Below, piece after piece: positions 2,313-25,688 of a stretch of 64,000 bases of DNA; position 1 is the first letter of the stretch; every line of letters starts with the position of its first letter. The position numbers were made by a program, and so were the translations under genes. The DNA comes from an uncultured bacterium (GTDB taxonomy: Bacteria > Zixibacteria > MSB-5A5 > UBA10806). The notes under the pieces are model-generated. The model ran no database searches and was not told where the DNA came from. It saw only the letters and a list, made by a program, of their open reading frames with translations. The stretch is taken from the NCBI GenBank assembly GCA_965541585.1, contig CBEUCH010000017.1:1-64000 (forward strand). Direction: 5' to 3'.

Positions 2313-3218
2313 ATGCGTAAGCTGATATTATTCTTCGGTATTATCGCTGTTGCGATATTCTGCGAAACCGCCAACGCCGAAAGTATACCGCATCCTCTCT
2401 TGGAATTATGTCAGGATATCGATCTTATAGTAATAGCGAAGGTCGGAGAGAATCTGAAGGCCGAATATCGTGGCCGTTCTCCCCAATTTGGGGCGGAGTT
2501 GCTTGTTGAATCCATCTTAAGAGGGAAAAGCGAGCAAAAAGCGATTTTCTGTTTTTATAGTCCGTATGTAATATGTCCGTCTGCACCCTATTTTAAACTC
2601 GGCGAGAGGATATTGGCATTTTTGGTAAAGAATCAAAATACCGACGATTATTCGGCCTGTGGCGATTCGCAAGGCATAAAACATTTACCTGCGGATCAAA
2701 TGGAAGTATACCGAAATCGAATTACTGAAATATTGGAAATATTACAGCTACCCGATGATATCCGACGGCAACAGGAAATTGCTAACTGGCTTTTTAAATG
2801 CGCCCAAAACCCCGTTACCCGCGGTGATGCCATTTATTCCCTCGGGATGCCCCTCAACCTTAAAATAGACAATACAACTTACGCTGATAAGCTGTCCGAT
2901 GATCAGATTCAAGTACTATATGAAGCCGTTCTAAAATCGACAGAAGTCTCTTATCCGGAAATCCAAATGCTCAAACTAACATCCACAAAATGGGATGATC
3001 GTTTATTCCCGTTCCTTCTCGAATGCCTTAAGAAAGATGTCGACAATCCGGATAGTTTTTCTTTTGAGATAATGATGATCATAGCAAACATAATTGGAAG
3101 CGAAGAAGCTCTGGATTTGGCTCAGGAGGATAAGAGAATGGAGGGGAACCCGGAAAGATGGGAAAACCGTAAAACTCTGGTAACCCGTTTCATCGATTTG
3201 ATTGAAAATTTGAGATGA
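2313..3218 (+). CDS. Hypothetical exported protein
   Basis: 301-aa ORF, ggagg RBS, N-terminal signal peptide, AT-richer than neighbours; no family recognised. Confidence 0.7.
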   Translation: MRKLILFFGIIAVAIFCETANAESIPHPLLELCQDIDLIVIAKVGENLKAEYRGRSPQFGAELLVESILRGKSEQKAIFCFYSPYVICPSAPYFKLGERILAFLVKNQNTDDYSACGDSQGIKHLPADQMEVYRNRITEILEILQLPDDIRRQQEIANWLFKCAQNPVTRGDAIYSLGMPLNLKIDNTTYADKLSDDQIQVLYEAVLKSTEVSYPEIQMLKLTSTKWDDRLFPFLLECLKKDVDNPDSFSFEIMMIIANIIGSEEALDLAQEDKRMEGNPERWENRKTLVTRFIDLIENLR

Positions 3219-3311
3219 TTGTCAAGATCTCAGAATGCCTTTGATCTTACTGCAATCAAAAACCATTTGCCAATAACCTGCTAATCCTATATTTTCCAAT
3301 CGTACAGGAAT

Positions 3312-3385
3312 GCCCCCGTAGCTCAGTTAGGATAGAGCAGCGGCCTCCGGAGCCGCGTGCGGCCGTTCGAGTCGGCCCGGGGGTA
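3312..3385 (+). tRNA. tRNA-Arg(CCG)
   Basis: Cloverleaf: GCCCCCG/CGGGGGT acceptor, GCGGC-CTCCGGA-GCCGC anticodon arm, TTCGAGT T-loop; CCA not encoded. Confidence 0.95.
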
Positions 3386-3490
3386 TTTGAATAACAGTGA
3401 ATCCAGCCGCCCCCCGCTATTGCAGGAACAGATCACCGATCTGTCCTGATCATGGTTCATAGGGTTGATTGAATCGAGCGGCAGTAATTT

Positions 3491-3580
3491 GATTCACTCC
3501 CAAACAAGTTTGGGAGTGCCACCCCGGGACTATTATTCAACTCTCCGGGTGCCAACCCCAAACTCGTTTTGGGGTTGATT
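3491..3580. repeat. Inverted pair of REP-like palindromes
   Basis: cactcccaaacaagtttgggagtgccaccc and gggtgccaaccccaaactcgttttggggttg are related hairpins in opposite orientation. Confidence 0.55.
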
Positions 3581-4027
3581 ATGAACTTTACTATGCTCTA
3601 CCCAATCCGACAACTTACCGCCGATGATTACGACGGGATGATCGCTCTCTGGCAACGGTCCGGCCTGGGGTATCGCCCCAGGGGCCGGGACGCGTACGAG
3701 GCCGTCGCTAAAGAGATCAAGAGGTTGGAAACCGCTTTTTTCGGCATGTTTGACGGCGATAAGATGATCGGCTCCATCATCGGCACCGCCGACGGCCGCA
3801 GGGGCTGGATCAACCGCCTGACAGTAGACCCGGATTACCGCGGCCGGGGACTGGCCGCGCGATTGCTGAAAGAATGCGAGGATTTCCTGCATCAACTCGG
3901 CCTGAAGGTGATAGCGGCCTTAATCGAGGACGATAACCAGGGCTCATTCTCGGCCTTCAAAAAATCCGGCTATATATACAATCCCAACGTTGCCTATTAC
4001 TCCAAACGGTTCACCCAGGACGATTAA
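3581..4027 (+). CDS. GNAT family N-acetyltransferase (YpeA-like)
   Basis: DGRRGWINRLTVDPDYRGRGLA acetyl-CoA motif; start uncertain. Confidence 0.85.
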   Translation: MNFTMLYPIRQLTADDYDGMIALWQRSGLGYRPRGRDAYEAVAKEIKRLETAFFGMFDGDKMIGSIIGTADGRRGWINRLTVDPDYRGRGLAARLLKECEDFLHQLGLKVIAALIEDDNQGSFSAFKKSGYIYNPNVAYYSKRFTQDD

Positions 4028-4046
4028 TAGCATAAACAATCAAGAC

Positions 4047-4075
4047 TTGCATCGCTATCGATTTTCTACTATAAT
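4047..4075 (+). promoter_or_regulatory. sigma70-type promoter for proS
   Basis: TTGCAT-17 bp-TATAAT. Confidence 0.65.
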
Positions 4076-4214
4076 GCCAAATTCGAACCGGTAGGAGCTC
4101 AATATATTGAGCCCCTAATACGACGAACTGAGGAAATGCTTTTCTGGAAAAGCCGATAATTCTGACGAAATAAGGCACATCGCCAGGGGCGAGTAGCCAT
4201 CTGCGAGGATAAAG

Positions 4215-5930
4215 ATGCTCTGGAGCAAGACATACATCCCGACACTTCGCGAGGACCCATCCGATGCCGTTGTGGCTTCTCATAAGCTTCTGCTTCGCGC
4301 CGGATATGTGCGGCAGCTGACCGCCGGCGTCTATAACTATCTGCCGTTAATGCAGCGCGTGATCCATCGTATCGAGAAGATCGTGCGTGAGGAGATGGAC
4401 GCCTCGGGCGCTATCGAAATCGCCATGCCGGTACTGCACCCGGCGGAGCTCTGGCAGAAGACCGGACGCTGGGAGACAGTCGGCAAGGAACAGATGCGGA
4501 TGAAAGACCGCCACCAGCGCGACCTCGTCCTGGGCGGAACCCACGAGGAGGTGGTTACCTGGATTGCCAGGGGAGAGCTGAGAAGCTACCGTCAATTGCC
4601 CCTCAATCTATACCAGATACAAGTCAAATTCCGCGACGAGCCCCGGCCGCGCTTCGGCCTCATACGGTGCCGCGAATTCATCATGAAGGACGCCTATAGC
4701 TTCGACGCCGACTGGAACGGACTTAAGATCGCCTATCAGAAGATGGCCGACGCCTATTTCAAGGTTTTCCGTCGCTGCGGTTTCGATATCAAGATGGTGG
4801 AATCCGATGTCGGCGCCATGGGCGGTACGGGCGCGCATGAGTTCATGGTTCTGGTGGATACCTCCGGCGGCGAAGAGACGATCCTGTCATGCAACCGCTG
4901 CGAATACGCCGCCAATGTCGAGAAAGCTACCTCGCTTGTCATGCAGGAAAAGCCCAAAGAGGAACCGCCGAAGCAGAGGGAAATGGTTTACACCCCCAAC
5001 ATGAAGACTGTGGAGGAGGTGACCGGTTTTCTCAAGGTCGGACCGGAGAAACTGATCAAGACTCTTCTATATCAGTCCGACGGCCAAACCGTGGCAGCAC
5101 TTATTCGAGGAGATCGCGATATAAACGAAATCAAGCTCAAAAACCATCTTCGCTGCCTGGAGCTCGAGATGTCCCCGCCGGAGATCGTCATGCAGGTGAC
5201 CGGCGCCCAGGTGGGATTCGCGGGGCCCATCGGCCTCGAAGGGATCAGGATAATTGCCGATCCCGAGATCAAATCGATGCAGAATTTTGTTGTTGGCGCC
5301 AACAAAGACGATACTCACATGGTGGGCGTTAACCTTGCCGATTTCAAAGTGGACGAATACGTGGAGATCCGTAAGGCGGAGGCCGGAGAAATATGCCCCC
5401 ACTGCAACCAGGGGCGGCTGGAGTCATTTTCGGGCATCGAGGTGGGCAATATCTTTATGCTCGGCACCAAATATTCCGAGGCCCTCGGCGCCAGTTTTAT
5501 CGATGCCGAAGGCGGCGAGAAACCATTTATAATGGGCTCCTATGGAATCGGTATCACTCGCACCGCCCAGGCGGCCATAGAAGCCTTCCACGACGAGAAA
5601 GGCATAATCTGGCCCGGGACCATAGCTCCGTATGATTTTCATATTATCCCCATCGATATCAAAGAGGAGCGGATCAAGGAAACGGCCTTCAAGATATATG
5701 GAGCGCTGATTGAAAAGGGCTACGATGTACTTATGGACGATCGCAACGAGAGGGCCGGTGTCAAATTCAACGACGCCGATCTTATTGGCATCCCAATCAG
5801 GATATGCATCGGCGCCAGGGGCCTTAAAGAAGGCGTCGTGGAGATAGTCAGGCGCAAGGGCCTGGAGATGGAAAAATGTTCCGTCGAGACGGCCGTAGAG
5901 GGGGCTATCAGGATTCTCGAAAATTTGTAA
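4215..5930 (+). CDS. proS: Proline--tRNA ligase (bacterial type with editing insertion)
   Basis: FRDEPRPRFGLIRCREFIMKDAYSF, MGSYGIG, GVKFNDADLIG. Confidence 0.97.
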   Translation: MLWSKTYIPTLREDPSDAVVASHKLLLRAGYVRQLTAGVYNYLPLMQRVIHRIEKIVREEMDASGAIEIAMPVLHPAELWQKTGRWETVGKEQMRMKDRHQRDLVLGGTHEEVVTWIARGELRSYRQLPLNLYQIQVKFRDEPRPRFGLIRCREFIMKDAYSFDADWNGLKIAYQKMADAYFKVFRRCGFDIKMVESDVGAMGGTGAHEFMVLVDTSGGEETILSCNRCEYAANVEKATSLVMQEKPKEEPPKQREMVYTPNMKTVEEVTGFLKVGPEKLIKTLLYQSDGQTVAALIRGDRDINEIKLKNHLRCLELEMSPPEIVMQVTGAQVGFAGPIGLEGIRIIADPEIKSMQNFVVGANKDDTHMVGVNLADFKVDEYVEIRKAEAGEICPHCNQGRLESFSGIEVGNIFMLGTKYSEALGASFIDAEGGEKPFIMGSYGIGITRTAQAAIEAFHDEKGIIWPGTIAPYDFHIIPIDIKEERIKETAFKIYGALIEKGYDVLMDDRNERAGVKFNDADLIGIPIRICIGARGLKEGVVEIVRRKGLEMEKCSVETAVEGAIRILENL

Positions 5931-5937
5931 AAAACAG

Positions 5938-5966
5938 TTGCTTTTAATGAGTTATGAGCATATAAT
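5938..5966 (+). promoter_or_regulatory. sigma70-type promoter of the rimP-nusA-infB operon
   Basis: TTGCTT-17 bp-TATAAT. Confidence 0.7.
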
Positions 5967-5978
5967 TTGTGATTCGGG

Positions 5979-6002
5979 GAGTGGGTTGTGGCCCACTCTT
6001 TT
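5979..6002 (+). promoter_or_regulatory. rimP leader terminator-like attenuator hairpin
   Basis: GAGTGGG-ttgtgg-CCCACTC-TTTT between the promoter and rimP. Confidence 0.7.
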
Positions 6003-6033
6003 GAGTATTGCTCATACCGGGGGTGGAGCGCTT

Positions 6034-6480
6034 TTGAGAGTGGATGTCGAGGATTTGAAAAGCAGACTGGAACCTCTAATCGAGGATTCAGGTTTTGAGT
6101 TGGCGGAGTTAACGGCGCCGCTCGTCGGTGGGCGGCAGATAATCCGGATCTATATCCACTCACCGGACGGAGTCACACTGGATGACTGCGCACGTATCAG
6201 CCGTCAGGTATCCGACAGGCTGGAAACCGATGATCCCGTAGCCGGCCGCTACAATCTCGAGGTTTCGTCGCTCGGGCTCAACAGGCCTTTGACCTCAGCC
6301 GGTGATTTCCAGAGAAGGATCGGGGAGAAAATTGCCGTTACTTATGACGATGGAAATGGTAAAACAACAGTTCAGGGTCTTTTGAAAGAATGCAATGGTT
6401 TATCCATCAAAATTGCGATGGGAGAGAAGATAGTGGATATTCCCGTGGACGCGAAACCGCGCGGAAAGATTCTGTTGTAA
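6034..6480 (+). CDS. rimP: Ribosome maturation factor RimP
   Basis: GVTLDDCARISR, YNLEVSSLGLNRPL; position before nusA; TTG start after ggag is inferred. Confidence 0.92.
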   Translation: MRVDVEDLKSRLEPLIEDSGFELAELTAPLVGGRQIIRIYIHSPDGVTLDDCARISRQVSDRLETDDPVAGRYNLEVSSLGLNRPLTSAGDFQRRIGEKIAVTYDDGNGKTTVQGLLKECNGLSIKIAMGEKIVDIPVDAKPRGKILL

Positions 6481-6507
6481 GCGTGGTTTTCGTGGGAGGA
6501 TTTCTCA

Positions 6508-7860
6508 ATGAATTATGATATTATTGAAGCATTCGGGCAGATAGCACAAGAGAAAAACCTCGATATTGATTACGTGCTCCAGACGGTGGAAGCGGCTCTG
6601 GCTTCCGCCATTAAAAAGAAATACAATATCGAGGAACAAGATAATATCCGTGTCGAAATCAACAGGAAAGAGGGCGAGATTATCGTCTATCTGACCAAAA
6701 AGGTAGTCGAGGAGGTCACCAATGCGGGCCTCGAGATGACTGTCGAGGAAGCATCCGAGCACTATGAAGATGTTGAGCTAGGGCAGGAGCTCGATGTCCC
6801 GATGCCATTCGAGACTTTCGGGCGAAACGCCATAACTACTGTCAAACAGGTTCTGATTCAGAAAGTTCGCGAAGCAGAAAGAGAGAAGATCTTTGGCGAA
6901 TACGAAGATAGAGTCGGCCAGATTGCTTCTGGAAATGTGCAGCAGATTGAAAAAGGCAATATTCTGGTTAATCTCGGCAGGGCAGAGGCGATAGTCCCGA
7001 TTCGCGAGCAGATCAAAAAAGAGAAATTCCGCCAGGGCGACCGGATCAAGGCTATCATTACTGACGTTCAGAATTCAACCCGGGGCCCGCAGATTTCTCT
7101 TTCGCGTTCATCTACCGATTTTCTGAAAAAGCTATTCGAGATGGAAGTGCCTGAGATTGCCGAGCGAATTATCGAAATCAGAGCTGTGGCACGCGAAGCG
7201 GGCGAAAGATCCAAGGTTGCCGTTTTGTCCAACGATGATAGGATTGATGCGGTGGGTGCCTGTGTGGGCGTCAAGGGAGTGCGGGTTCAGAATATCGTAA
7301 GAGAGTTGAACAACGAGAGGATTGATATTGTTCCCTGGTCGGTTGAGCCGATGATATTCGTCACCAAATCGCTGGCGCCCGCCAAGATAGTCAATATCGA
7401 TGTGTTCATCGAGGATCAGAAGATGCTGGTTGCCGTCGCCGACGATAAACTCTCGCTGGCGATCGGAAAGGCAGGACAGAACGCACGGCTGGCCGCGAAG
7501 CTGACCGGCTGGAAAATAAATATCATGTCGGAGACCGAGTACGATGCTCTTAAGAAATCCGAGGAAGAGGAAAAGGTCGATATCGAAAACGTCAGCACCA
7601 TCGGCCCGAAGATGATTCAAAAGCTGTTTCGGGCCGGATTCGAGACGGCCCAGGATGTGGTCAACGCTGAACTGGACAGGCTTACCAAAATAGATGGAAT
7701 AGGAGCGAAAACGGCAGAGAAGATTGTCTCCGCCTGCAGGAATGCCATTGCAGAGGCGGAGGAAAAACTCAAGGCCGAAGGTGACGAGGAGGCTGAAACT
7801 CCTGCTGAGATGGAATTTACGCCCGAGGATGAAGCTCTGCCCAGAATGGAGGACTATTAA
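6508..7860 (+). CDS. nusA: Transcription termination/antitermination factor NusA
   Basis: S1 and KH domains (AREAGERSK, GACVG, AIGKAGQNARLA), C-terminal HhH. Confidence 0.97.
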   Translation: MNYDIIEAFGQIAQEKNLDIDYVLQTVEAALASAIKKKYNIEEQDNIRVEINRKEGEIIVYLTKKVVEEVTNAGLEMTVEEASEHYEDVELGQELDVPMPFETFGRNAITTVKQVLIQKVREAEREKIFGEYEDRVGQIASGNVQQIEKGNILVNLGRAEAIVPIREQIKKEKFRQGDRIKAIITDVQNSTRGPQISLSRSSTDFLKKLFEMEVPEIAERIIEIRAVAREAGERSKVAVLSNDDRIDAVGACVGVKGVRVQNIVRELNNERIDIVPWSVEPMIFVTKSLAPAKIVNIDVFIEDQKMLVAVADDKLSLAIGKAGQNARLAAKLTGWKINIMSETEYDALKKSEEEEKVDIENVSTIGPKMIQKLFRAGFETAQDVVNAELDRLTKIDGIGAKTAEKIVSACRNAIAEAEEKLKAEGDEEAETPAEMEFTPEDEALPRMEDY

Positions 7861-17471: not shown

Positions 17472-17837
17472 ATGAACCATCTTTCTTTTAAACGATTCTT
17501 AATCAGAGTGCTGATTACCAGCGCGGCCGTTCTTATAGTGGTCAGGATACTGCCCTGGGCGGAGGTCAGCGGTCCGGGCGCACTGATAGTCACGGCACTG
17601 CTTCTTGGTATATTCAATTCCATTCTCAGGCCACTTCTCATAATTCTCACTCTGCCGATAAATATACTGAGCTTCGGCCTGTTCATATTTATTATCAACG
17701 GGCTGATTCTTTACCTGATCTCAGTCCTGGTGCCGGGATTCGAAATAAGCAGCTTCGGCGCCGCAGTCCTGACATCCATACTTATTTCGATCACCGCCGG
17801 GACGATCAACTGGCTGATACGGGATAAGCGACATTGA
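17472..17837 (+). CDS. YvlD/DUF360 family 4-TM membrane protein
   Basis: ILRPLLIILTLPINILSFGLF signature. Confidence 0.85.
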   Translation: MNHLSFKRFLIRVLITSAAVLIVVRILPWAEVSGPGALIVTALLLGIFNSILRPLLIILTLPINILSFGLFIFIINGLILYLISVLVPGFEISSFGAAVLTSILISITAGTINWLIRDKRH

Positions 17838-17849
17838 AGCGCGAGTTGA

Positions 17850-20351
17850 ATGATGTCTGAAAATAATAAAGGGCCTGTGGTTTCCGGATCTTATCCGTTC
17901 AAGAAAATCGAGGCCAGGTGGCGAGAATACTGGGAACAAAATGGTCTGCATAAAACAGACCTCTCGAATTCCGCTAAAAAACTCTATTCGCTTGTGATGT
18001 TCTCATACCCGTCGGGTGAAAGGCTTCATATCGGCCACTGGTATAATTTCGGCCCGGCGGACACGTGGAGCCGTAAGAAAAAAATGGAAGGTTATAATAT
18101 ATTCGAACCAATGGGATTCGATTCTTTCGGTTTGCCCGCTGAGAACTATGCGGTCAAGACCGGGATAAATCCGGTTGTCTCCACCGCGGAGAATATAGAT
18201 ATCATACGAAAACAGCTCCGGGAAATCGGAGCCATGTATGATTGGTCCAGACAACTGGCAACCAGCGATCCCGCTTATTATAAGTGGACTCAATGGCTTT
18301 TCTTGAAATTCTTCGAACGCGGTATGGCAGTCCGCAAAGAAGCCCCGGTTAACTGGTGCCCTTCCTGCAAGACTGTTCTGGCCAATGAACAGGTCATCGA
18401 CGGTAGATGCGAGCGATGCGAGACCAGTGTAACCAGGCGAAATCTCAAGCAGTGGTTTCTAAGAATAACAGAATATGCCGACCGGCTGCTGGCCGGACTC
18501 GATAAAATCGACTGGCCCGAGAAGACGATCAGCATGCAGAGAAATTGGATCGGCCGATCCGAGGGAAGTGAAATTATCTTCAAAGAGGAAAAAACAGGGG
18601 AGAAGATCCCGGTATTTACAACTCGCACCGATACCCTGTTCGGTGTGACCTACCTTGTTCTGGCCCCGGAACATCCATTAGTTACGAATTTCACCAAGCC
18701 CGAACAAAAAAAGAGCATCAACGATTACATCGAACAGAGCCGCAGCCTCTCGGAAATCGAGCGGCTTTCAACCGCTAAAGAGAAGACCGGTGTCTTTACG
18801 GGGAGCTACTGCATAAATCCGATTAACGGCGACCGTGTCCCCATATGGATCGCGGACTATGTTCTGTTTTCATACGGTACGGGTGCCGTGATGGCGGTTC
18901 CGGGACATGATCAGCGTGATTGGGAATTCGCCACAAGATTCGGATTGGAAATCAAGCAGGTGATAAAACCCTCCAGCGAAACCGGGGCCGATCTCGATTC
19001 CGGCGCCTTTGTCGATTATGGAGTTATGGTCAACTCGGGTGAATTCGATGATCTGAGCTCCGAGGAAGGCGCCAGACGTGTAACCGAAAAACTCAAAAGC
19101 AGTAAATCAGGGGACTTTAAGATCACTTTCAAGCTGAGAGACTGGCTTATTTCACGTCAGAGGTACTGGGGCACGCCGATCCCTGTTATCAGGTGTCCAG
19201 AATGCGGCGACGTTGCGGTCCCTGAAGAAAGCCTGCCGGTGTTGTTGCCGGAGATCGACGATTTCAGACCCACGGGCGACGGTAAATCCCCGCTGGCAAA
19301 AGATTCAGGATTCTCAAATGCCAGATGCCCAAAATGCGGGGGAGAGGCCGAACGAGAAACAGATACCATGGATACTTTCGTTGATTCCTCATGGTATTTC
19401 CTGCGATATGTCGACCCTGAATACAAAGACGGCCCCTGGAACTCGAAGCTCGTAGAGGAATGGCTTCCCGTAGATATGTATATAGGCGGGGCAGAACATG
19501 CCGTGATGCATCTAATGTATGCGCGCTATTTCTGTATGTGCTTGCACGACATAGGGTTAATTTCATTCGACGAGCCTTTTTTGAAACTGCGCCACCAGGG
19601 GATCATAACCAACAGAGGAGCCAAGATCTCGAAATCCAGGGGCAACGTGGTCAATCCTGATCATTTCCTCGACCGATATGGCTCCGATACCCTTCGCATG
19701 TTTTTGATGTTCATGGGCTCTTATAAGCACGGCGGCGACTGGGATGATACTGGAATTAACGGCGTCGCCAGGTTCCTGGCCCGAGTATATCGATTGGTCA
19801 TACAGAACGCTGATGGAATCAAGGATCGTATCTCCTTATCGTATTCAGACCTGACCGATAAAGCCCCGACCTTAAACCATCGCTTGAACCTGACGATCAA
19901 ATGTGTTACCCACGATATTGGCTCGCTGGAGTTCAATACGGCTATCTCAGCCTTAATGGAGCTTGTAAACGAGCTATACCGATCTTACGAAAATGATAAG
20001 GCGGCCGGCGATCTATTCTATTTCAGCATGAAGCAACTTATCCTGACTCTCGCACCCATGGCGCCGCACCTGGCCGAGGAGTTATGGCAGGCAGTCGGTG
20101 GTAAACCGAGCATATTCGATCAGAAATGGCCTGTTCACGATGAATCCGCCTTGCTTTTAGATACAATTACGATGGTGGTCCAGATAAACGGCAAGCTTCG
20201 TGGGAGTTTCAGCGTGCCCATCGATATCAGTCAGGATGATTTCTATAATCTGGCCATGGAAGACACTACGTTATCACGGCACCTGAAAGGAAAACAGGTG
20301 CAAAAGACGATATTCATACCCGGCAAAATATTGAATATAGTGGCTAAATAG
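17850..20351 (+). CDS. leuS: Leucine--tRNA ligase
   Basis: HIGH, DWLISRQRYWG, KISKS. Confidence 0.97.
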   Translation: MMSENNKGPVVSGSYPFKKIEARWREYWEQNGLHKTDLSNSAKKLYSLVMFSYPSGERLHIGHWYNFGPADTWSRKKKMEGYNIFEPMGFDSFGLPAENYAVKTGINPVVSTAENIDIIRKQLREIGAMYDWSRQLATSDPAYYKWTQWLFLKFFERGMAVRKEAPVNWCPSCKTVLANEQVIDGRCERCETSVTRRNLKQWFLRITEYADRLLAGLDKIDWPEKTISMQRNWIGRSEGSEIIFKEEKTGEKIPVFTTRTDTLFGVTYLVLAPEHPLVTNFTKPEQKKSINDYIEQSRSLSEIERLSTAKEKTGVFTGSYCINPINGDRVPIWIADYVLFSYGTGAVMAVPGHDQRDWEFATRFGLEIKQVIKPSSETGADLDSGAFVDYGVMVNSGEFDDLSSEEGARRVTEKLKSSKSGDFKITFKLRDWLISRQRYWGTPIPVIRCPECGDVAVPEESLPVLLPEIDDFRPTGDGKSPLAKDSGFSNARCPKCGGEAERETDTMDTFVDSSWYFLRYVDPEYKDGPWNSKLVEEWLPVDMYIGGAEHAVMHLMYARYFCMCLHDIGLISFDEPFLKLRHQGIITNRGAKISKSRGNVVNPDHFLDRYGSDTLRMFLMFMGSYKHGGDWDDTGINGVARFLARVYRLVIQNADGIKDRISLSYSDLTDKAPTLNHRLNLTIKCVTHDIGSLEFNTAISALMELVNELYRSYENDKAAGDLFYFSMKQLILTLAPMAPHLAEELWQAVGGKPSIFDQKWPVHDESALLLDTITMVVQINGKLRGSFSVPIDISQDDFYNLAMEDTTLSRHLKGKQVQKTIFIPGKILNIVAK

Positions 20352-20389
20352 GGGGTCAAATGAGTGACAGGGTTAATTTACAGAAATGA

Positions 20390-20417
20390 AGTTTACATAA
20401 TATATCTTATAGGACTC
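20390..20417 (-). other. XerCD dif site (probable chromosome terminus)
   Basis: Minus strand GAGTCCTATAA-GATATA-TTATGTAAACT; right arm identical to the Bacillus/Staphylococcus dif arm; sits at the +/- gene-orientation switch. Confidence 0.8.
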
Positions 20418-20495
20418 TAAAGGCCGGTTCAAGCGCAAAAGCCGAGGCCGAAAAAAACGGCGGAAGCGGTAGGCTGGCGGAACAGCTAATTTTGA

Positions 20496-20532
20496 GGCCG
20501 CCTGGTCTCCTACAAAGGAATACCAGGCGGCC
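20496..20532. terminator. GC-rich hairpin between convergent genes
   Basis: 11-bp stem GGCCGCCTGGT/ACCAGGCGGCC; no clear U-tract. Confidence 0.5.
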
Positions 20533-20575
20533 CTCTAGGTAAGTCTATCTAATCTTAAACGTCCTTCATCCCCCT

Positions 20576-20983
20576 TTAACCTGAATCCTTGATTATCATG
20601 AGCACATATTCCCAGCCCAGATAATCCTGCAATGGGTCGTAGACATAAACTCTGCCATTCGTTAACTGCACATCCTCAATAAACTGATAAGCCCACAGGG
20701 CTGGGTCCGAGCTCATCCAAAGTTGAACTACGTCAGTATCGCTTATGTATGAACTCAGGATGTTAATCAAATTCCCCTGGTAATCAGAAATTGAAATTGT
20801 CCCGTATACGTGGATGATAACAGCTCCATCTTCCCCTGGTGGCCCTGTCGGCCCTGTTGGTCCTGTCGGTCCTTGAGGTCCGTCTGCCCCTGTCTCTCCC
20901 GCCGGTCCCGCCGGTCCTGTATCCCCCTCGCAGCCCAACGATACCAGCGCCAACAATAAAGCTAAAATAATAGATCTTTTCAT
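20576..20983 (-). CDS. Collagen-like (Gly-X-Y x12) lipoprotein
   Basis: Signal peptide MKRSIILALLLALVSLG-C, then GDTGPAGPAGETGADGPQGPTGPTGPTGPPGEDGAV; gggggtga RBS. Confidence 0.82.
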   Translation of the reverse strand: MKRSIILALLLALVSLGCEGDTGPAGPAGETGADGPQGPTGPTGPTGPPGEDGAVIIHVYGTISISDYQGNLINILSSYISDTDVVQLWMSSDPALWAYQFIEDVQLTNGRVYVYDPLQDYLGWEYVLMIIKDSG

Positions 20984-21019
20984 GAAATCACCCCCTTTCG
21001 CGTGATCTGATATATCAAT

Positions 21020-21048
21020 AAGATACAGAATTGATTTTTTTCGGTCAA
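21020..21048 (-). promoter_or_regulatory. sigma70-type promoter of the collagen-like gene
   Basis: Minus strand TTGACC-17 bp-TATCTT. Confidence 0.5.
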
Positions 21049-21060
21049 GCAAAAAAACGC

Positions 21061-21089
21061 TTGACAGATCGAGATCTCCTGTGTATAAT
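21061..21089 (+). promoter_or_regulatory. Consensus sigma70 promoter with no downstream gene
   Basis: TTGACA-17 bp-TATAAT. Confidence 0.7.
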
Positions 21090-21237
21090 CTCGGCCGACT
21101 GATTTTTGATAGCCCTTTTATTGAATTGCTGAAGGCCCTGGAACCTTCTCTCTCGAAGGAATTCCGCGGCCCGAGGCATCTAAAGAGAGAAGAGGTTGTC
21201 CTGCCAAAAAGACAGTGTTACATGTTACCGTTGCAGG

Positions 21238-21265
21238 GTTTAAGACGTATATATTATAGGACTAC
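21238..21265 (-). other. Degenerate dif-like site (intact XerC-side arm)
   Basis: Minus strand TAGTCCTATAA-TAATAT-ACGTCTTAAAC; 10 bp identical to the first site's arm, same orientation. Confidence 0.5.
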
Positions 21266-21312
21266 AAGGACTACAGGTTTTCTCTTGCGTCTCCATGCCA
21301 GTGGGCTATTAG

Positions 21313-23475
21313 TCAGACCATCCACGGAATCCTATCTGAGCCGGGTCTTGGCAGTTCAATACGCAAGGCCTCGGACGGAGGCCAAACCTCCAATAGCTTG
21401 TTATCCTCCTTAACCTCAACCCTGAAGGAAATTATTTCCTCCGGTTTCAGCTTGAATTCCATAAGCGGCAGCGAAATCTCCAATATGTCCTCGATCTGAT
21501 GTCTAAAGCCTTGAATCTCTCTGTCGTCAAGCTTCATTTTCGCGTCAGGGCCGGTTATAGAAAGCCTCCCTGCTCTTGGCTTCAAGAATTCAATTACAAA
21601 AGTGAGCCGGCGGAATCTTATAATATCTACACCAGTAGCTTTGTCGACACGAATATACAGGTTCCTCTGATCAAAGCCGAACCATATCCCGGACACTAGC
21701 ATTTCTGATTTATGCATGGTTGAGCCGGCTTTAAGACAATTGAGGAATCCGGCCTGCTGCCATTCAAAATAATGGGTCAGCATACCGTCTATGGTCGGGG
21801 TTATATACTCGATCGGGACCGTCAGGTGCTCGGGCGTAAAGCTCGACCGTATAGGCTCTAAAAGGCCGGGCGGCGGATCCCGGTCAGTAAGTTTATAAAC
21901 ATTAGCCAGATGTGATCTAAACAGGCGGTCGAAATCGTCGTTATTCGGCCCGACGTGATCATCGCCGAACCACCAGCACCAATCAGAACCCTCCGCTATA
22001 TAGATTTCCCTCCAGGCTTTCCGGAGCCCTTCCTTATCGAACTCCGGGTTGGATTTCTGGAAATTTAGAAGATCATTCCTTGCTTTCGATAGCAGATCCC
22101 AGGCTTTATTATCTTCGCGGTGCCCGATCCAGATGGCGAAATTGTGATTGATCCAGCTACCCGGATAGAGTTTTTTGAGTTGCAATGATTCCGGTTTACC
22201 GGATAGATACTGGCTGAAAGTCGTTGTCTCCAGCCAATCCGCCTCGGAAATTTTGGTATATAATATGCTCAGAAAATCATGACCATCGTTAGGATAATAC
22301 TCCCAGGCGTTTTCGCCGTCGAGAATGACCGATACAATGGGGTCTTTTATATTTTTTGAAATCAGGTTTCTGTGAATCGCATCTAACCTGGTGAGAAAAT
22401 CGTCGGCGCCCTTTTCCGGATCCCATTGTGAATAAACAAAACCGATATTATCAGAAAGCGTACGATCGCGGAAAAAGATCTTGAGCGCTGCCCCTCCCTT
22501 GCTGAGGGAATAACTCCTGTACAGATCTCCGGATTTAGCCGGTTTATCGACGCTTCCCTGCTCGCCCGGGCCGGTCAGGCTGCGGGCCAGAATCTCTTCA
22601 TCGGTGGCGATCCACTGGATTCCCTGTTCGGAGATTATAGGTATAATATCCTCGGAAACCGAGCCTTCCGACGGCCACATGCCGCTCGGCGGTTTGCCGA
22701 AAAGCTCGACGTACAGATCAACGGCCATGGCCACCTGCTTGTGGACGTCCTCCGGATGCTGAAATCTTTCCTGCGGTAACTCTGCGTCCGGTGTGGCAAC
22801 CTTTGCGACGGCAGAGTCATATAATAGGGGCATTATGGGATGAAAATAAGGACTGGTGGAGACCTCGATTTGCCCCATTTCCATCATCTCTTTCAACTCC
22901 GGGACTATCCTCCCGATAATTCTCTGATGCGCGGATAGAATTTCCCGCTTATCCTCCTCCGTGTACCTCTCCCCTTTTTCAGTTAATTCAGAAAGCCTGC
23001 CGTTCTTCTTGAATGTCGGATCGATCCATGCCAGGTTAGATAAACATTGCAGGTCGCGCCAATCGTTTTCCTCCCAGCTGTCCATGGCCCTTTTGCGATC
23101 GTCGAACAGCTGTCTATATCTGCGGTTCGGGTAGATCATGTTATCGTAATTAGCCTGAAAATGCAGATCCAGGATTCTCTGTTTATCTTCGTCTGTCAGA
23201 CCTGATGCTTTTTTCAAGCTTAATTCGAGATGCGGATCAAAAGCGACGCCTCTGGCATAGTCGTCCAGCTGCTCCAGCAGCGATGGAACCATATTGAACG
23301 TTTGTCTTATGCGGGGAAAGCTTCTGAGGATCTCCACCATGTCGAGGTAATCCTTGACGCCGTGAAGCCTGACCCACGGTAAGTGATAATAACCTGTTGA
23401 GAGGTCTTTATAAAAGGGTTGATGTTGATGCCATAGAAACGCTAATTTCAGCACAGGTTCAAGTGCCTGTATCAA
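21313..23475 (-). CDS. Glycoside hydrolase family 57 protein
   Basis: WHQHQP, WPSEG nucleophile, LDGENAW, AEGSDWCWW. Confidence 0.93.
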   Translation of the reverse strand: MIQALEPVLKLAFLWHQHQPFYKDLSTGYYHLPWVRLHGVKDYLDMVEILRSFPRIRQTFNMVPSLLEQLDDYARGVAFDPHLELSLKKASGLTDEDKQRILDLHFQANYDNMIYPNRRYRQLFDDRKRAMDSWEENDWRDLQCLSNLAWIDPTFKKNGRLSELTEKGERYTEEDKREILSAHQRIIGRIVPELKEMMEMGQIEVSTSPYFHPIMPLLYDSAVAKVATPDAELPQERFQHPEDVHKQVAMAVDLYVELFGKPPSGMWPSEGSVSEDIIPIISEQGIQWIATDEEILARSLTGPGEQGSVDKPAKSGDLYRSYSLSKGGAALKIFFRDRTLSDNIGFVYSQWDPEKGADDFLTRLDAIHRNLISKNIKDPIVSVILDGENAWEYYPNDGHDFLSILYTKISEADWLETTTFSQYLSGKPESLQLKKLYPGSWINHNFAIWIGHREDNKAWDLLSKARNDLLNFQKSNPEFDKEGLRKAWREIYIAEGSDWCWWFGDDHVGPNNDDFDRLFRSHLANVYKLTDRDPPPGLLEPIRSSFTPEHLTVPIEYITPTIDGMLTHYFEWQQAGFLNCLKAGSTMHKSEMLVSGIWFGFDQRNLYIRVDKATGVDIIRFRRLTFVIEFLKPRAGRLSITGPDAKMKLDDREIQGFRHQIEDILEISLPLMEFKLKPEEIISFRVEVKEDNKLLEVWPPSEALRIELPRPGSDRIPWMV

Positions 23476-24341: not shown

Positions 24342-25688
24342 TCAGAAATACATTCCCGCCGAAATGAACAGCCGGCTGTAATCCCGCTTAATCTCAAAAT
24401 CCACCGGCGCTGTAAAAGTGACAGTGCCATTGTAGGAACTACTTCCAAACTGGTATGCCAGATCGAACCAGATCTTTTCAAAATATAAACCCGTTCCGAA
24501 CGTAATGATATTTGTCGAAATCTGATCGCCTCTTTCATCGGCCCAGGTGCTGTCTGTCGCATTAAAGGTATAAGAGGTACGCTCCTTTATCGCAGACGGT
24601 TCATTCCTGAAACCGGCTCTCACAGGGATATCTGCGAATCCGGCGTCCAGAATGTACTCGGCGCCTATCCTGAACTGGTTAACATCTTCCCATCCAAGAT
24701 TAAAGGTGGTATCGGAAATAATAATCCGCTCCCAATTAGTTTTAACGTCGACTTTTGACAGCGGACGGCTATCGAAATCAAACGCCAGGGTAAAATTCTC
24801 CACAGGCGCGATACCGATCCCCAGAGAATAGCTGAGCGGCATGTTATAGGTATAGCTCACGCGCTCAACGACACCTATCGGCGCCGGCGGAATAATGATT
24901 TGGTATGTCCATTTGGCGTCCTGTGTCAGGTCATAAGGCGTATGGACAACCGCCCCGCCTTTTATTATGCCAAAATCAGCGGAAAGACCCAAATCGAGAT
25001 TAAATCCGGAAAAGTGAGAATTGAAGTTGGTCCAGAAGTCTACCGTGTCTACGTTTTGTCCGGCTGAAATAAACTCAAAGGATGCGCCCTCAAATTCGTT
25101 TTGCTCGCTGTTGCGGATATAGAGATTGGCCGTCAGCCCTATACCAATCCCTTCTGTTATCTTGTTGGCGATCCCCATGCTTACAGCGTCGATCCCGCGA
25201 TCCTGTGAGAATGAATTTTCGGTACCGGCGAACCCCGGAGTATTGTATTCGAAAACCATATCATAGACGTTTCTATAACCACCGCCGACAGCCCATTCCC
25301 TCTCCATAAATTCGAAAGGCGCGGTAAATCCACCGAAGTTCAAGCTGAAATGCTCTCGGTTAATTTCTACAGGCTGGATGTTTGCCTCCGCGTATAATGG
25401 AGAGTATCGAGTGAATGTGCCATTGAACTTATCTCCGACGGAAACAAGCTGGACTCCGATCTTAGTCTTGTCGGTGTAAATCATGGCGGCGGGATTCCAT
25501 GAATAAGCCATCTCGCCTTCGGCGATTCCGAGGAAGGCCCCGCCCATACCTGCGGCCCTCGCTCCACCACCGGTTACGTTGAATTCCAGCCGGCTGGGAT
25601 TAATACCGACATCTTGAGCATTGGATATGGCTGACAGAAAAATCACAATTGCGATAGCCAGAAATATGCTATACCGCTTTCTCATCAT
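24342..25688 (-). CDS. Outer-membrane beta-barrel transporter (FadL/OmpP1-like)
   Basis: Signal peptide, GGGARAAGMGGAF, WNPAA, C-terminal Phe. Confidence 0.82.
   Translation of the reverse strand: MMRKRYSIFLAIAIVIFLSAISNAQDVGINPSRLEFNVTGGGARAAGMGGAFLGIAEGEMAYSWNPAAMIYTDKTKIGVQLVSVGDKFNGTFTRYSPLYAEANIQPVEINREHFSLNFGGFTAPFEFMEREWAVGGGYRNVYDMVFEYNTPGFAGTENSFSQDRGIDAVSMGIANKITEGIGIGLTANLYIRNSEQNEFEGASFEFISAGQNVDTVDFWTNFNSHFSGFNLDLGLSADFGIIKGGAVVHTPYDLTQDAKWTYQIIIPPAPIGVVERVSYTYNMPLSYSLGIGIAPVENFTLAFDFDSRPLSKVDVKTNWERIIISDTTFNLGWEDVNQFRIGAEYILDAGFADIPVRAGFRNEPSAIKERTSYTFNATDSTWADERGDQISTNIITFGTGLYFEKIWFDLAYQFGSSSYNGTVTFTAPVDFEIKRDYSRLFISAGMYF

Follow-up and report, generated by a model that had tools for sequence, protein, structure and literature searches.

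A short insert between leuS and a GH57 gene

The window analysed here is a stretch of 64,000 nucleotides from one contig of an uncultured member of the Zixibacteria. The locus is framed by two host genes that converge at its first dif site, leuS on the plus strand (17850-20351, TIGR00396 over the cut-off) and a GH57 glycoside hydrolase gene on the minus strand (21313-23475, Pfam PF03065). Between them lie a canonical dif (site 1, 20390-20417), a half-degenerate copy of it (site 2, 21237-21264) and an insert of 847 bp that amounts to one repeat unit (20407-21253, with the crossover anywhere in the spacer and XerC-arm stretch that the sites share). The GC content of the insert is 48%, like that of the host, and its sole gene encodes a lipoprotein of 135 amino acids on the minus strand (20576-20983). 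Further along the window, a gene at 24342-25688 encodes an outer-membrane barrel of 448 amino acids with weak BamG/PorV-type and FadL-type matches, below the cut-offs.

Site 1 is the predicted chromosomal dif

Site 1 reads AGTTTACATAA TATATC TTATAGGACTC on the plus strand and comprises an XerD-type arm (20390-20400), a spacer (20401-20406) and an XerC-type arm (20407-20417). Its left arm and layout agree with the XerD side of the Vibrio dif motif, as given in the accessible part of PMC12715192. A pattern derived from site 1 has exactly one match in 121 of 285 genomes of the phylum, and the reversed control has none; several families have no match to the pattern, which implies further variants of dif. 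Within its own genome, the pattern fully matches site 1 alone. Along this contig, the GC skew stays positive for the first 20 kb and then turns negative, with the switch at site 1. KOPS counts show no clear polarity. The genome has two chromosomal Xer-type recombinase genes (C5:128722-129675 and C3:215375-216259), which score just under the cut-off of the XerD model (TIGR02225, 325.8 against 329.6) and well under that of the XerC model (TIGR02224, 279-283 against 335), and an FtsK-gamma domain over its cut-off. On these sequence features, site 1 is predicted to be the dif that this bacterium uses for chromosome untangling.

The linkage of dif to leuS is fixed in two families and several others, where dif lies about 40-250 bp 3' of leuS (loci L007-L028 and L143-L242). 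One of these genomes (G029, L024:4287) has a second perfect XerD arm 149 bp beyond dif, without an XerC arm. Perfect XerD arms number four in all in the genome studied here, which is not clearly more than chance. A full site of this dif type is also found on 21 viral contigs (L092-L112), with spacers that are nearly all different; these are possible dimer-resolution or attachment sites of phages or plasmids.

Relatives carry a single dif and no insert

The interval between leuS and the GH57 gene was compared in relatives. From 29 leuS loci, we kept the 19 that also have the GH57 gene and left out ten, four without the end of leuS and six without GH57 in the locus. The gap between the two genes is 964 bp here and 77-291 bp in all 19 relatives, which belong to two families, and each of them has a single dif and no insert. 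In two genomes of the same genus the gap is 113 and 114 bp, close to the 117 bp that remain here once the 847 bp are subtracted. A contig of 4,072 bases from a public run (X1), about 95% identical overall, matches the window at 17500-20415, apart from 127 differences, and then again from 21274 onwards (49 differences in 893); the ten letters in between resemble the eleven behind the arm of site 2. This joint implies that the host flank follows site 2 and that the insert is one repeat unit to within a base. Joints in two further runs (X2 and X3) have short sides or unknown filling and were left out. The single dif in 19 relatives and in the contig thus points to a precise, strain-level insertion with IMEX-type ends, younger than the split from a relative at about 5% divergence and so with only limited time to decay.

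The sequence-only reading had proposed to look for an empty site in related genomes, which is what the 19 relatives and the joined contig provide, and had named an invariant interval together with an unconserved second arm as the observation that would speak against its reading; the interval is not invariant. It had also noted a 9-bp tandem, AGGACTACA x2, that overlaps the second site. The tandem is present (21258-21275, plus strand). It is host sequence outside the element, as the X1 joint implies, and a diverged version follows the single dif of the X1 contig.

Site 2 keeps the spacer and XerC arm of dif

Site 2 (GGTTTAAGACG TATATA TTATAGGACTA, plus strand) lies in direct orientation 847 bp from site 1 and is identical to it at 20 of 28 positions, distributed unevenly over the parts: 10 of 11 in the XerC arm, 5 of 6 in the spacer and 5 of 11 in the XerD arm. 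The single spacer change is adjacent to the XerC arm. In the XerD arm, all of the inner five bases are changed and five of the six outer bases are kept. The inner five depart from columns that are otherwise invariant (columns that the search pattern partly fixes), and the arm has neither the T at the first position nor the G at the fifth. The recurrence of the arm in the same orientation stands as first described, except that the second copy starts at 21254 and not at 21255, and the GTTTA reported as retained in the decayed arm is indeed kept.

Of all genome positions that match the right arm at 9 or more of 11 bases, only site 1 itself is a better match than site 2. We scored the spacer plus nine XerC-arm bases (15 positions). 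Site 2 scores 14, and among about 7.04 million positions in its own genome only one other besides dif reaches 14 and six reach 13. Because such scores are so few, the background for a 14/15 match within 1 kb is about 1 in 3,000 to 7,000. In the 1.43 Mb around 99 other dif sites, the maximum in the same orientation is 12. The bare 10-mer arm is not rare, with five copies in the genome, and a chance 10-bp match had been raised as a possible explanation; the match of spacer and arm together nevertheless exceeds chance. The decayed second arm itself is found here, beside a 14/15 match, and is conserved nowhere else that was searched. The other 14/15 position (C5:167983-168010 of the same genome, G000) is an intergenic look-alike of the spacer and XerC arm without an XerD arm.

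The cargo is a collagen-like lipoprotein

The Gly-X-Y lipoprotein gene that had been read from the sequence is real. The protein has a signal peptide with a lipobox Cys18, a stalk in which each third residue from 17 to 53 is Gly (13 triplets, Pfam Collagen over the cut-off) and a beta head of 80 residues (model pLDDT 91). When the genome's own paralogue was searched against 1.84 billion representatives, 61 hits came back; 41 of these were aligned with the two proteins of this genome, and Cys18 and the Gly positions are conserved in the 43 family members. The homotrimer model scores 0.79, against 0.00 for the best control, with at least 70% of contacts shared between runs and pLDDT of at least 79. 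The mark for a trimer is reached by 20 of 30 solved homo-pairs and by 1 of 23 single chains, counts that apply only roughly here, and the pass may reflect likeness, since collagen helices are well represented among solved structures. On these models, the lipoprotein is predicted to form a homotrimer and is likely to be a lipid-anchored surface stalk.

NCBIfam matches are to collagen only and far below the cut-off. The best hit of the head in a fold search has a Z of 7.5 (rmsd 2.4, 73 aligned positions), under the value of 8 that the tool calls common, and the chains retrieved are from phage baseplates, tailspikes and endospore appendages. The viral structure library gave no match to the head at E<=0.001, and Atlas hits were under 0.9. 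The source names of the cargo homologues and of one Atlas cluster point to Zixibacteria. Matches to the cargo in the genome and viral scans were to its signal peptide or collagen part, and none of them passed the head-domain profile. That profile finds eight loci in other genomes as well as the paralogue on contig C6 of the same genome; no dif pair lies within about 1.5 kb of any of these, several of the loci being cut short. The family is encoded in none of 100 fetched dif regions.

The paralogue on C6 sits in a repeat locus (C6:206555-208729, L070:6556-8730) in which a 24-40 bp repeat occurs four times, at intervals of 575, 603 and 576 bp. Each repeat is followed by one small gene: two 108-amino-acid Cys-rich paralogues, a 160-amino-acid lipoprotein and the paralogue of the dif cargo. 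No further copy of the repeat exists in the genome, and homologues in relatives do not have it beside them. About 2 kb past the repeats, at the contig end, are a tRNA-Asn, tRNA-like repeats and a GIY-YIG ORF. This locus is a possible cassette array. Close mosaic homologues of the cargo lie on short contigs (P0068, P0074, P0076, P0101, P0102, P0078 and P0104), the lengths of which are paired (940/941, 807/809/857 and 1572/1577 bp); judged by lengths and proteins only, these could be discrete units.

The remainder of the insert is non-coding

Next to site 1 is a purine-rich stretch (20418-20492) with no started ORF, no significant fold (z -1.1) and no homologue; it has no PHROG match and no protein relative, and matches in 285 genomes span only 18-37 bp. 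It is a candidate place of a deletion. It is followed by a GC-rich hairpin (20493-20536) that folds with z of -5.8 and -6.1, values that none of 200 shuffles equalled on either strand, in agreement with the strong hairpin noticed between the sites. The hairpin is likely the terminator of the lipoprotein gene and is possibly bidirectional. The terminator scan is silent on it because it has no U-tract.

The back-to-back promoters of the sequence-only reading are also found, as sigma-70 matches. The one for the lipoprotein gene is on the minus strand (21048-21020, 9/12), and the other, a perfect consensus match on the plus strand (21061-21089, 12/12), is one of 20 in the genome and points at site 2 with no gene behind it within the insert. 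Downstream of the latter is a leader of about 140 nt (21096-21236, plus strand) with no convincing ORF, a weak fold (z -1.9) and no homologue. Rfam gave only two matches to it, far below the gathering score. No tRNA or tmRNA was found in the leader and no 6S match in the genome, and a covariance model built from this one sequence matched only itself in 101 genomes.

No integrase is encoded in the insert, as had been proposed. Pfam and PHROG searches of the insert gave no match to a rep, relaxase, capsid or activator gene, no truncated gene was recognised anywhere in it, and the 98% complete genome has no DUF3653 (XafT). Three candidate features were rejected. A long stem that reaches into host DNA was dropped because it spans the junction. 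For a CTX-type hairpin attP, the best inverted partner, near 20541-20561, is equalled in 540 of 2000 shuffles and in 853 of 4274 genomic windows and is at the level of chance. A frame that is open across the modelled circle junction has a poor ribosome site, ends past the hairpin and has no relatives in its left part, and is probably a chance frame.

No further copies or exchanged cargo

We searched for a second insert of this kind in 100 of the 121 dif regions, fetched with 4 kb on the XerD side and 16 kb on the XerC side; 99 were scored, one being at a contig edge, and the remaining 21, from the same family and order, were covered by the shorter leuS loci. None of the 99 has a second same-orientation site of at least 13/15, whereas the opposite-strand control has two at 13; as a positive control, site 2 was recovered in the window. 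The XerC side is at least 1 kb long in 92 of the 99 regions, at least 5 kb in 73 and at least 15 kb in 55, so larger elements could be missed, and with one genome per species strain-level inserts are under-sampled.

Insert DNA has no real match in 200 further genomes, and its non-coding parts have none in 284. No parent element or donor locus was found in 285 genomes. Plasmids and phages gave only collagen or promoter-sized matches, and the contigs of three public runs, all of them without the insert, contain no circle junction. The sequence-only reading had suggested that cargo is swapped between the same arms. Other cargo occurs there in none of the 19 relatives and none of the 99 further dif regions, the cargo homologues elsewhere are not linked to dif and the non-coding parts have no homologue; these data do not make the interval a member of a cassette family.

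Pattern searches gave a number of rejected hits. The degenerate-site pattern has 19 hits in metagenomes, ten of them in one coding sequence and none with a dif nearby, and three in viruses, in two contexts that are both coding. The spacer and arm pattern has 29 viral hits, none with more than 5/11 to either XerD arm, and the hairpin pattern has 12, all unrelated. One degenerate-site match (L085:1214) lies between a gene end, which we take to be Kae1-like, and the next gene on a metagenome contig of 1,955 bp, and is either chance or an unrelated dif-like site.

Comparison with known Xer-exploiting elements

TLC spans several kb, and TLC and RS1 alike are elements of a few kb, compared with 847 bp here. 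The pairs of pdif sites are inverted in orientation, and the two sites of the insert are direct.

The comparisons below hold for the accessible parts of the sources cited. In TLC-type IMEXs and the gonococcal genetic island (GGI), a canonical dif is rebuilt from the XerC arm of the element and the XerD arm of the host, and the weak second site resists FtsK-driven excision (PMC9226527, PMC5357621, bioRxiv 10.64898/2026.06.12.731946). The insert resembles the TLC-phi-type IMEX of Vibrio cholerae, which has no integrase and lies at dif between a canonical site and one with an intact XerC arm, a homologous spacer and a degenerate XerD arm, and both have an ORF-free region on the XerD side (PMC9226527, PMC6744903). 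It differs from TLC-phi in having no XafT/DUF3653, no Cri replication protein or rolling-circle initiator, and no T in the first or G in the fifth XerD-arm position. Like the insert, the GGI has cargo between dif and an XerD-arm-degenerate dif and no XafT, and its stability is put down to the removal of Xer from the weak site by FtsK (PMC5357621, PMC9226527, PMC6744903). The GGI is 57 kb long, however, and GGI1 has changes in the outer six bases of the arm, whereas in site 2 the changes fill the inner five and most of the outer six are kept.

Enterogokushovirus and dif-type double jelly-roll prophages are likewise integrase-free and dif-flanked, with an element site that varies in the spacer and XerD arm, and one-armed attachment sites of 17 bp have been described (PMC7062461, PMC12715192). 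These prophages are 4.3-4.7 kb or larger and have capsid and replication genes, none of which is in the insert. A cis-mobilizable element (CIME) also keeps attL and attR while integration and transfer genes are absent, but CIMEs derive from ICEs or IMEs with their own integrase and usually lie at tRNA ends (PMC5704250); here the recombinase would be that of the host and, unlike in a CIME, would remain available. The pdif/dif modules of Acinetobacter are small single-gene units between Xer sites, in which the main dif is considered a non-participant (PMC12907356), whereas one site here is the main dif. The insert lacks the pair of inverted dif-like sites from which a CTX-type IMEX folds its single-stranded attP, and the attP spacer of VGJ differs on the XerD side (PMC5357621) while that of the insert differs only on the XerC side.

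Origin of the insert

The IMEX-like ends proposed from the sequence, a canonical dif and a direct site with a degenerate XerD arm, are those found at the locus, and it is very probable from the sequence evidence that the host XerC and XerD integrated the insert. A circle whose attachment site combined a good XerC arm with a poor XerD arm would have recombined with dif. The crossover would have taken place at the border between spacer and XerC arm, the product expected from XerC strand exchange, because the family-typical TATATC stayed with the host XerD arm (if the spacer is unchanged since). Integration would have restored a working dif at site 1, presumably a hybrid of the host XerD arm and spacer with the XerC arm of the element, and created site 2, presumably a hybrid of the element XerD arm and spacer with the host XerC arm. 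Site 2 would be a poor substrate for XerD, so that FtsK-driven excision would be rare and the insert locked in.

The route of integration may have departed from that of TLC. In Vibrio, and measured only there, a T at the XerD arm's first position and a G at its fifth favour integration driven by FtsK or XafT (PMC9226527). With neither base present, and with spacers that differ next to the XerC cut, the present site 2 is a poor fit to every described route. The arm may have decayed once the insert was in place, integration may have followed an XerC-first route resolved by replication, as described for CTX and VGJ (PMC4246890), or an unknown activator may have acted in trans, as XafT can and as has been proposed for the GGI (PMC6744903).

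Most likely the insert is now non-autonomous, and a trimmed remnant of a larger Xer-exploiting element is more likely than a complete helper-dependent mini-circle. Replication and activator genes would have been deleted later, most plausibly just inside the XerC arm, and the deletion would have left an orphan strong promoter and, as cargo, the gene for a trimeric surface protein with a lipid anchor and a collagen stalk. Three points make us favour a remnant: the insert encodes nothing with which it could replicate or move, its strong promoter is without a gene, and a second copy was not found in the material searched. TLC has its activator gene on the XerC side of attP (PMC6744903), where the insert has only 75 non-coding bases, and we count this for a remnant as well. 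The main argument against it is tidiness: no damage is apparent in the cargo gene, its ribosome site, the two promoter matches or the hairpin, there is no gene debris, and on the modelled circle both promoters converge on one hairpin. No larger parent element was found, and the time for decay was limited. With the later gene deletion included, we consider the whole account evenly balanced between right and wrong.

That same tidiness is what a complete mini-circle of 847 bp would explain, with its single cargo gene, a pole of divergent promoters and an opposite pole with a hairpin, replicated or carried by a helper and recombined by host Xer with an activator in trans. With the ends joined in silico, transcription from the strong promoter crosses the attachment site and runs up to the same hairpin at which the cargo gene ends, so that the two transcripts would converge only in the circle, and XafT acting in trans has a precedent in the proposal for the GGI (PMC6744903). 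The paired lengths of the short contigs with close cargo homologues are a weak lead in the same direction, but those homologues share their N-terminus with the C6 paralogue, which is not at a dif and is itself in a different repeat array, and most contigs of that collection are short anyway. No circle junction and no second copy were found in the material searched, no origin or helper was recognised, and the leader folds weakly, which makes this reading possible but doubtful. In its strongest form, it would make the insert the smallest natural Xer-exploiting element, a complete helper-dependent circle with no mobility gene, a site that breaks the XerD-arm rule, an RNA that crosses the attachment site only when the circle is free, and an unknown activator or an XerC-only route in Zixibacteria; we think this unlikely. 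The insert may instead never have been a mobile element, if XerC recombined dif with a random circularised fragment of a related chromosome that by chance had a look-alike of the spacer and XerC arm, and replication then fixed the product. The family of the cargo is native to the phylum and has no dif linkage at its other loci, the host-like GC content and a promoter style that matches other genomes of the phylum fit this, and the look-alike at C5:167983 shows that such a site exists. However, that site is intergenic, 285 genomes hold no donor locus, and site 2 also keeps five of the six outer XerD-arm bases; we regard such a capture as improbable. An insert that has nothing to do with Xer (a chance arm match or an assembly error), or one that is ancestral and was lost in relatives, is the least probable of all and largely refuted. 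The arm alone occurs five times in the genome and the insert is known from the assembled contig, but the breakpoints coincide with both sites, the match of spacer and arm so close to dif is rare by the background given above, the 10 bp that are shared exactly are too short to fool an assembler, and the insert is absent in all 19 relatives from two families.

Significance

Described dif-integrated elements include gokushovirus prophages of 4.3-4.7 kb (PMC7062461) and elements of 29 kb and 57 kb (PMC5357621), which would make the 847-bp insert far smaller than the described elements of its kind in these accessible texts. We found no sub-kilobase element at a main dif, and no report of dif or IMEXs in Zixibacteria, in the largely open-access literature searched. 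The locus extends Xer-exploiting insertions to a lineage for which we found no earlier dif or IMEX report, and a dif consensus is now defined for 121 genomes of the phylum. It also offers a natural attachment site that, by the Vibrio rules, should integrate poorly. As a remnant, the insert would be a solitary case of the ordinary decay that elements of a known kind undergo. A complete unit would mean that gene cassettes of less than 1 kb can travel without any mobility gene.
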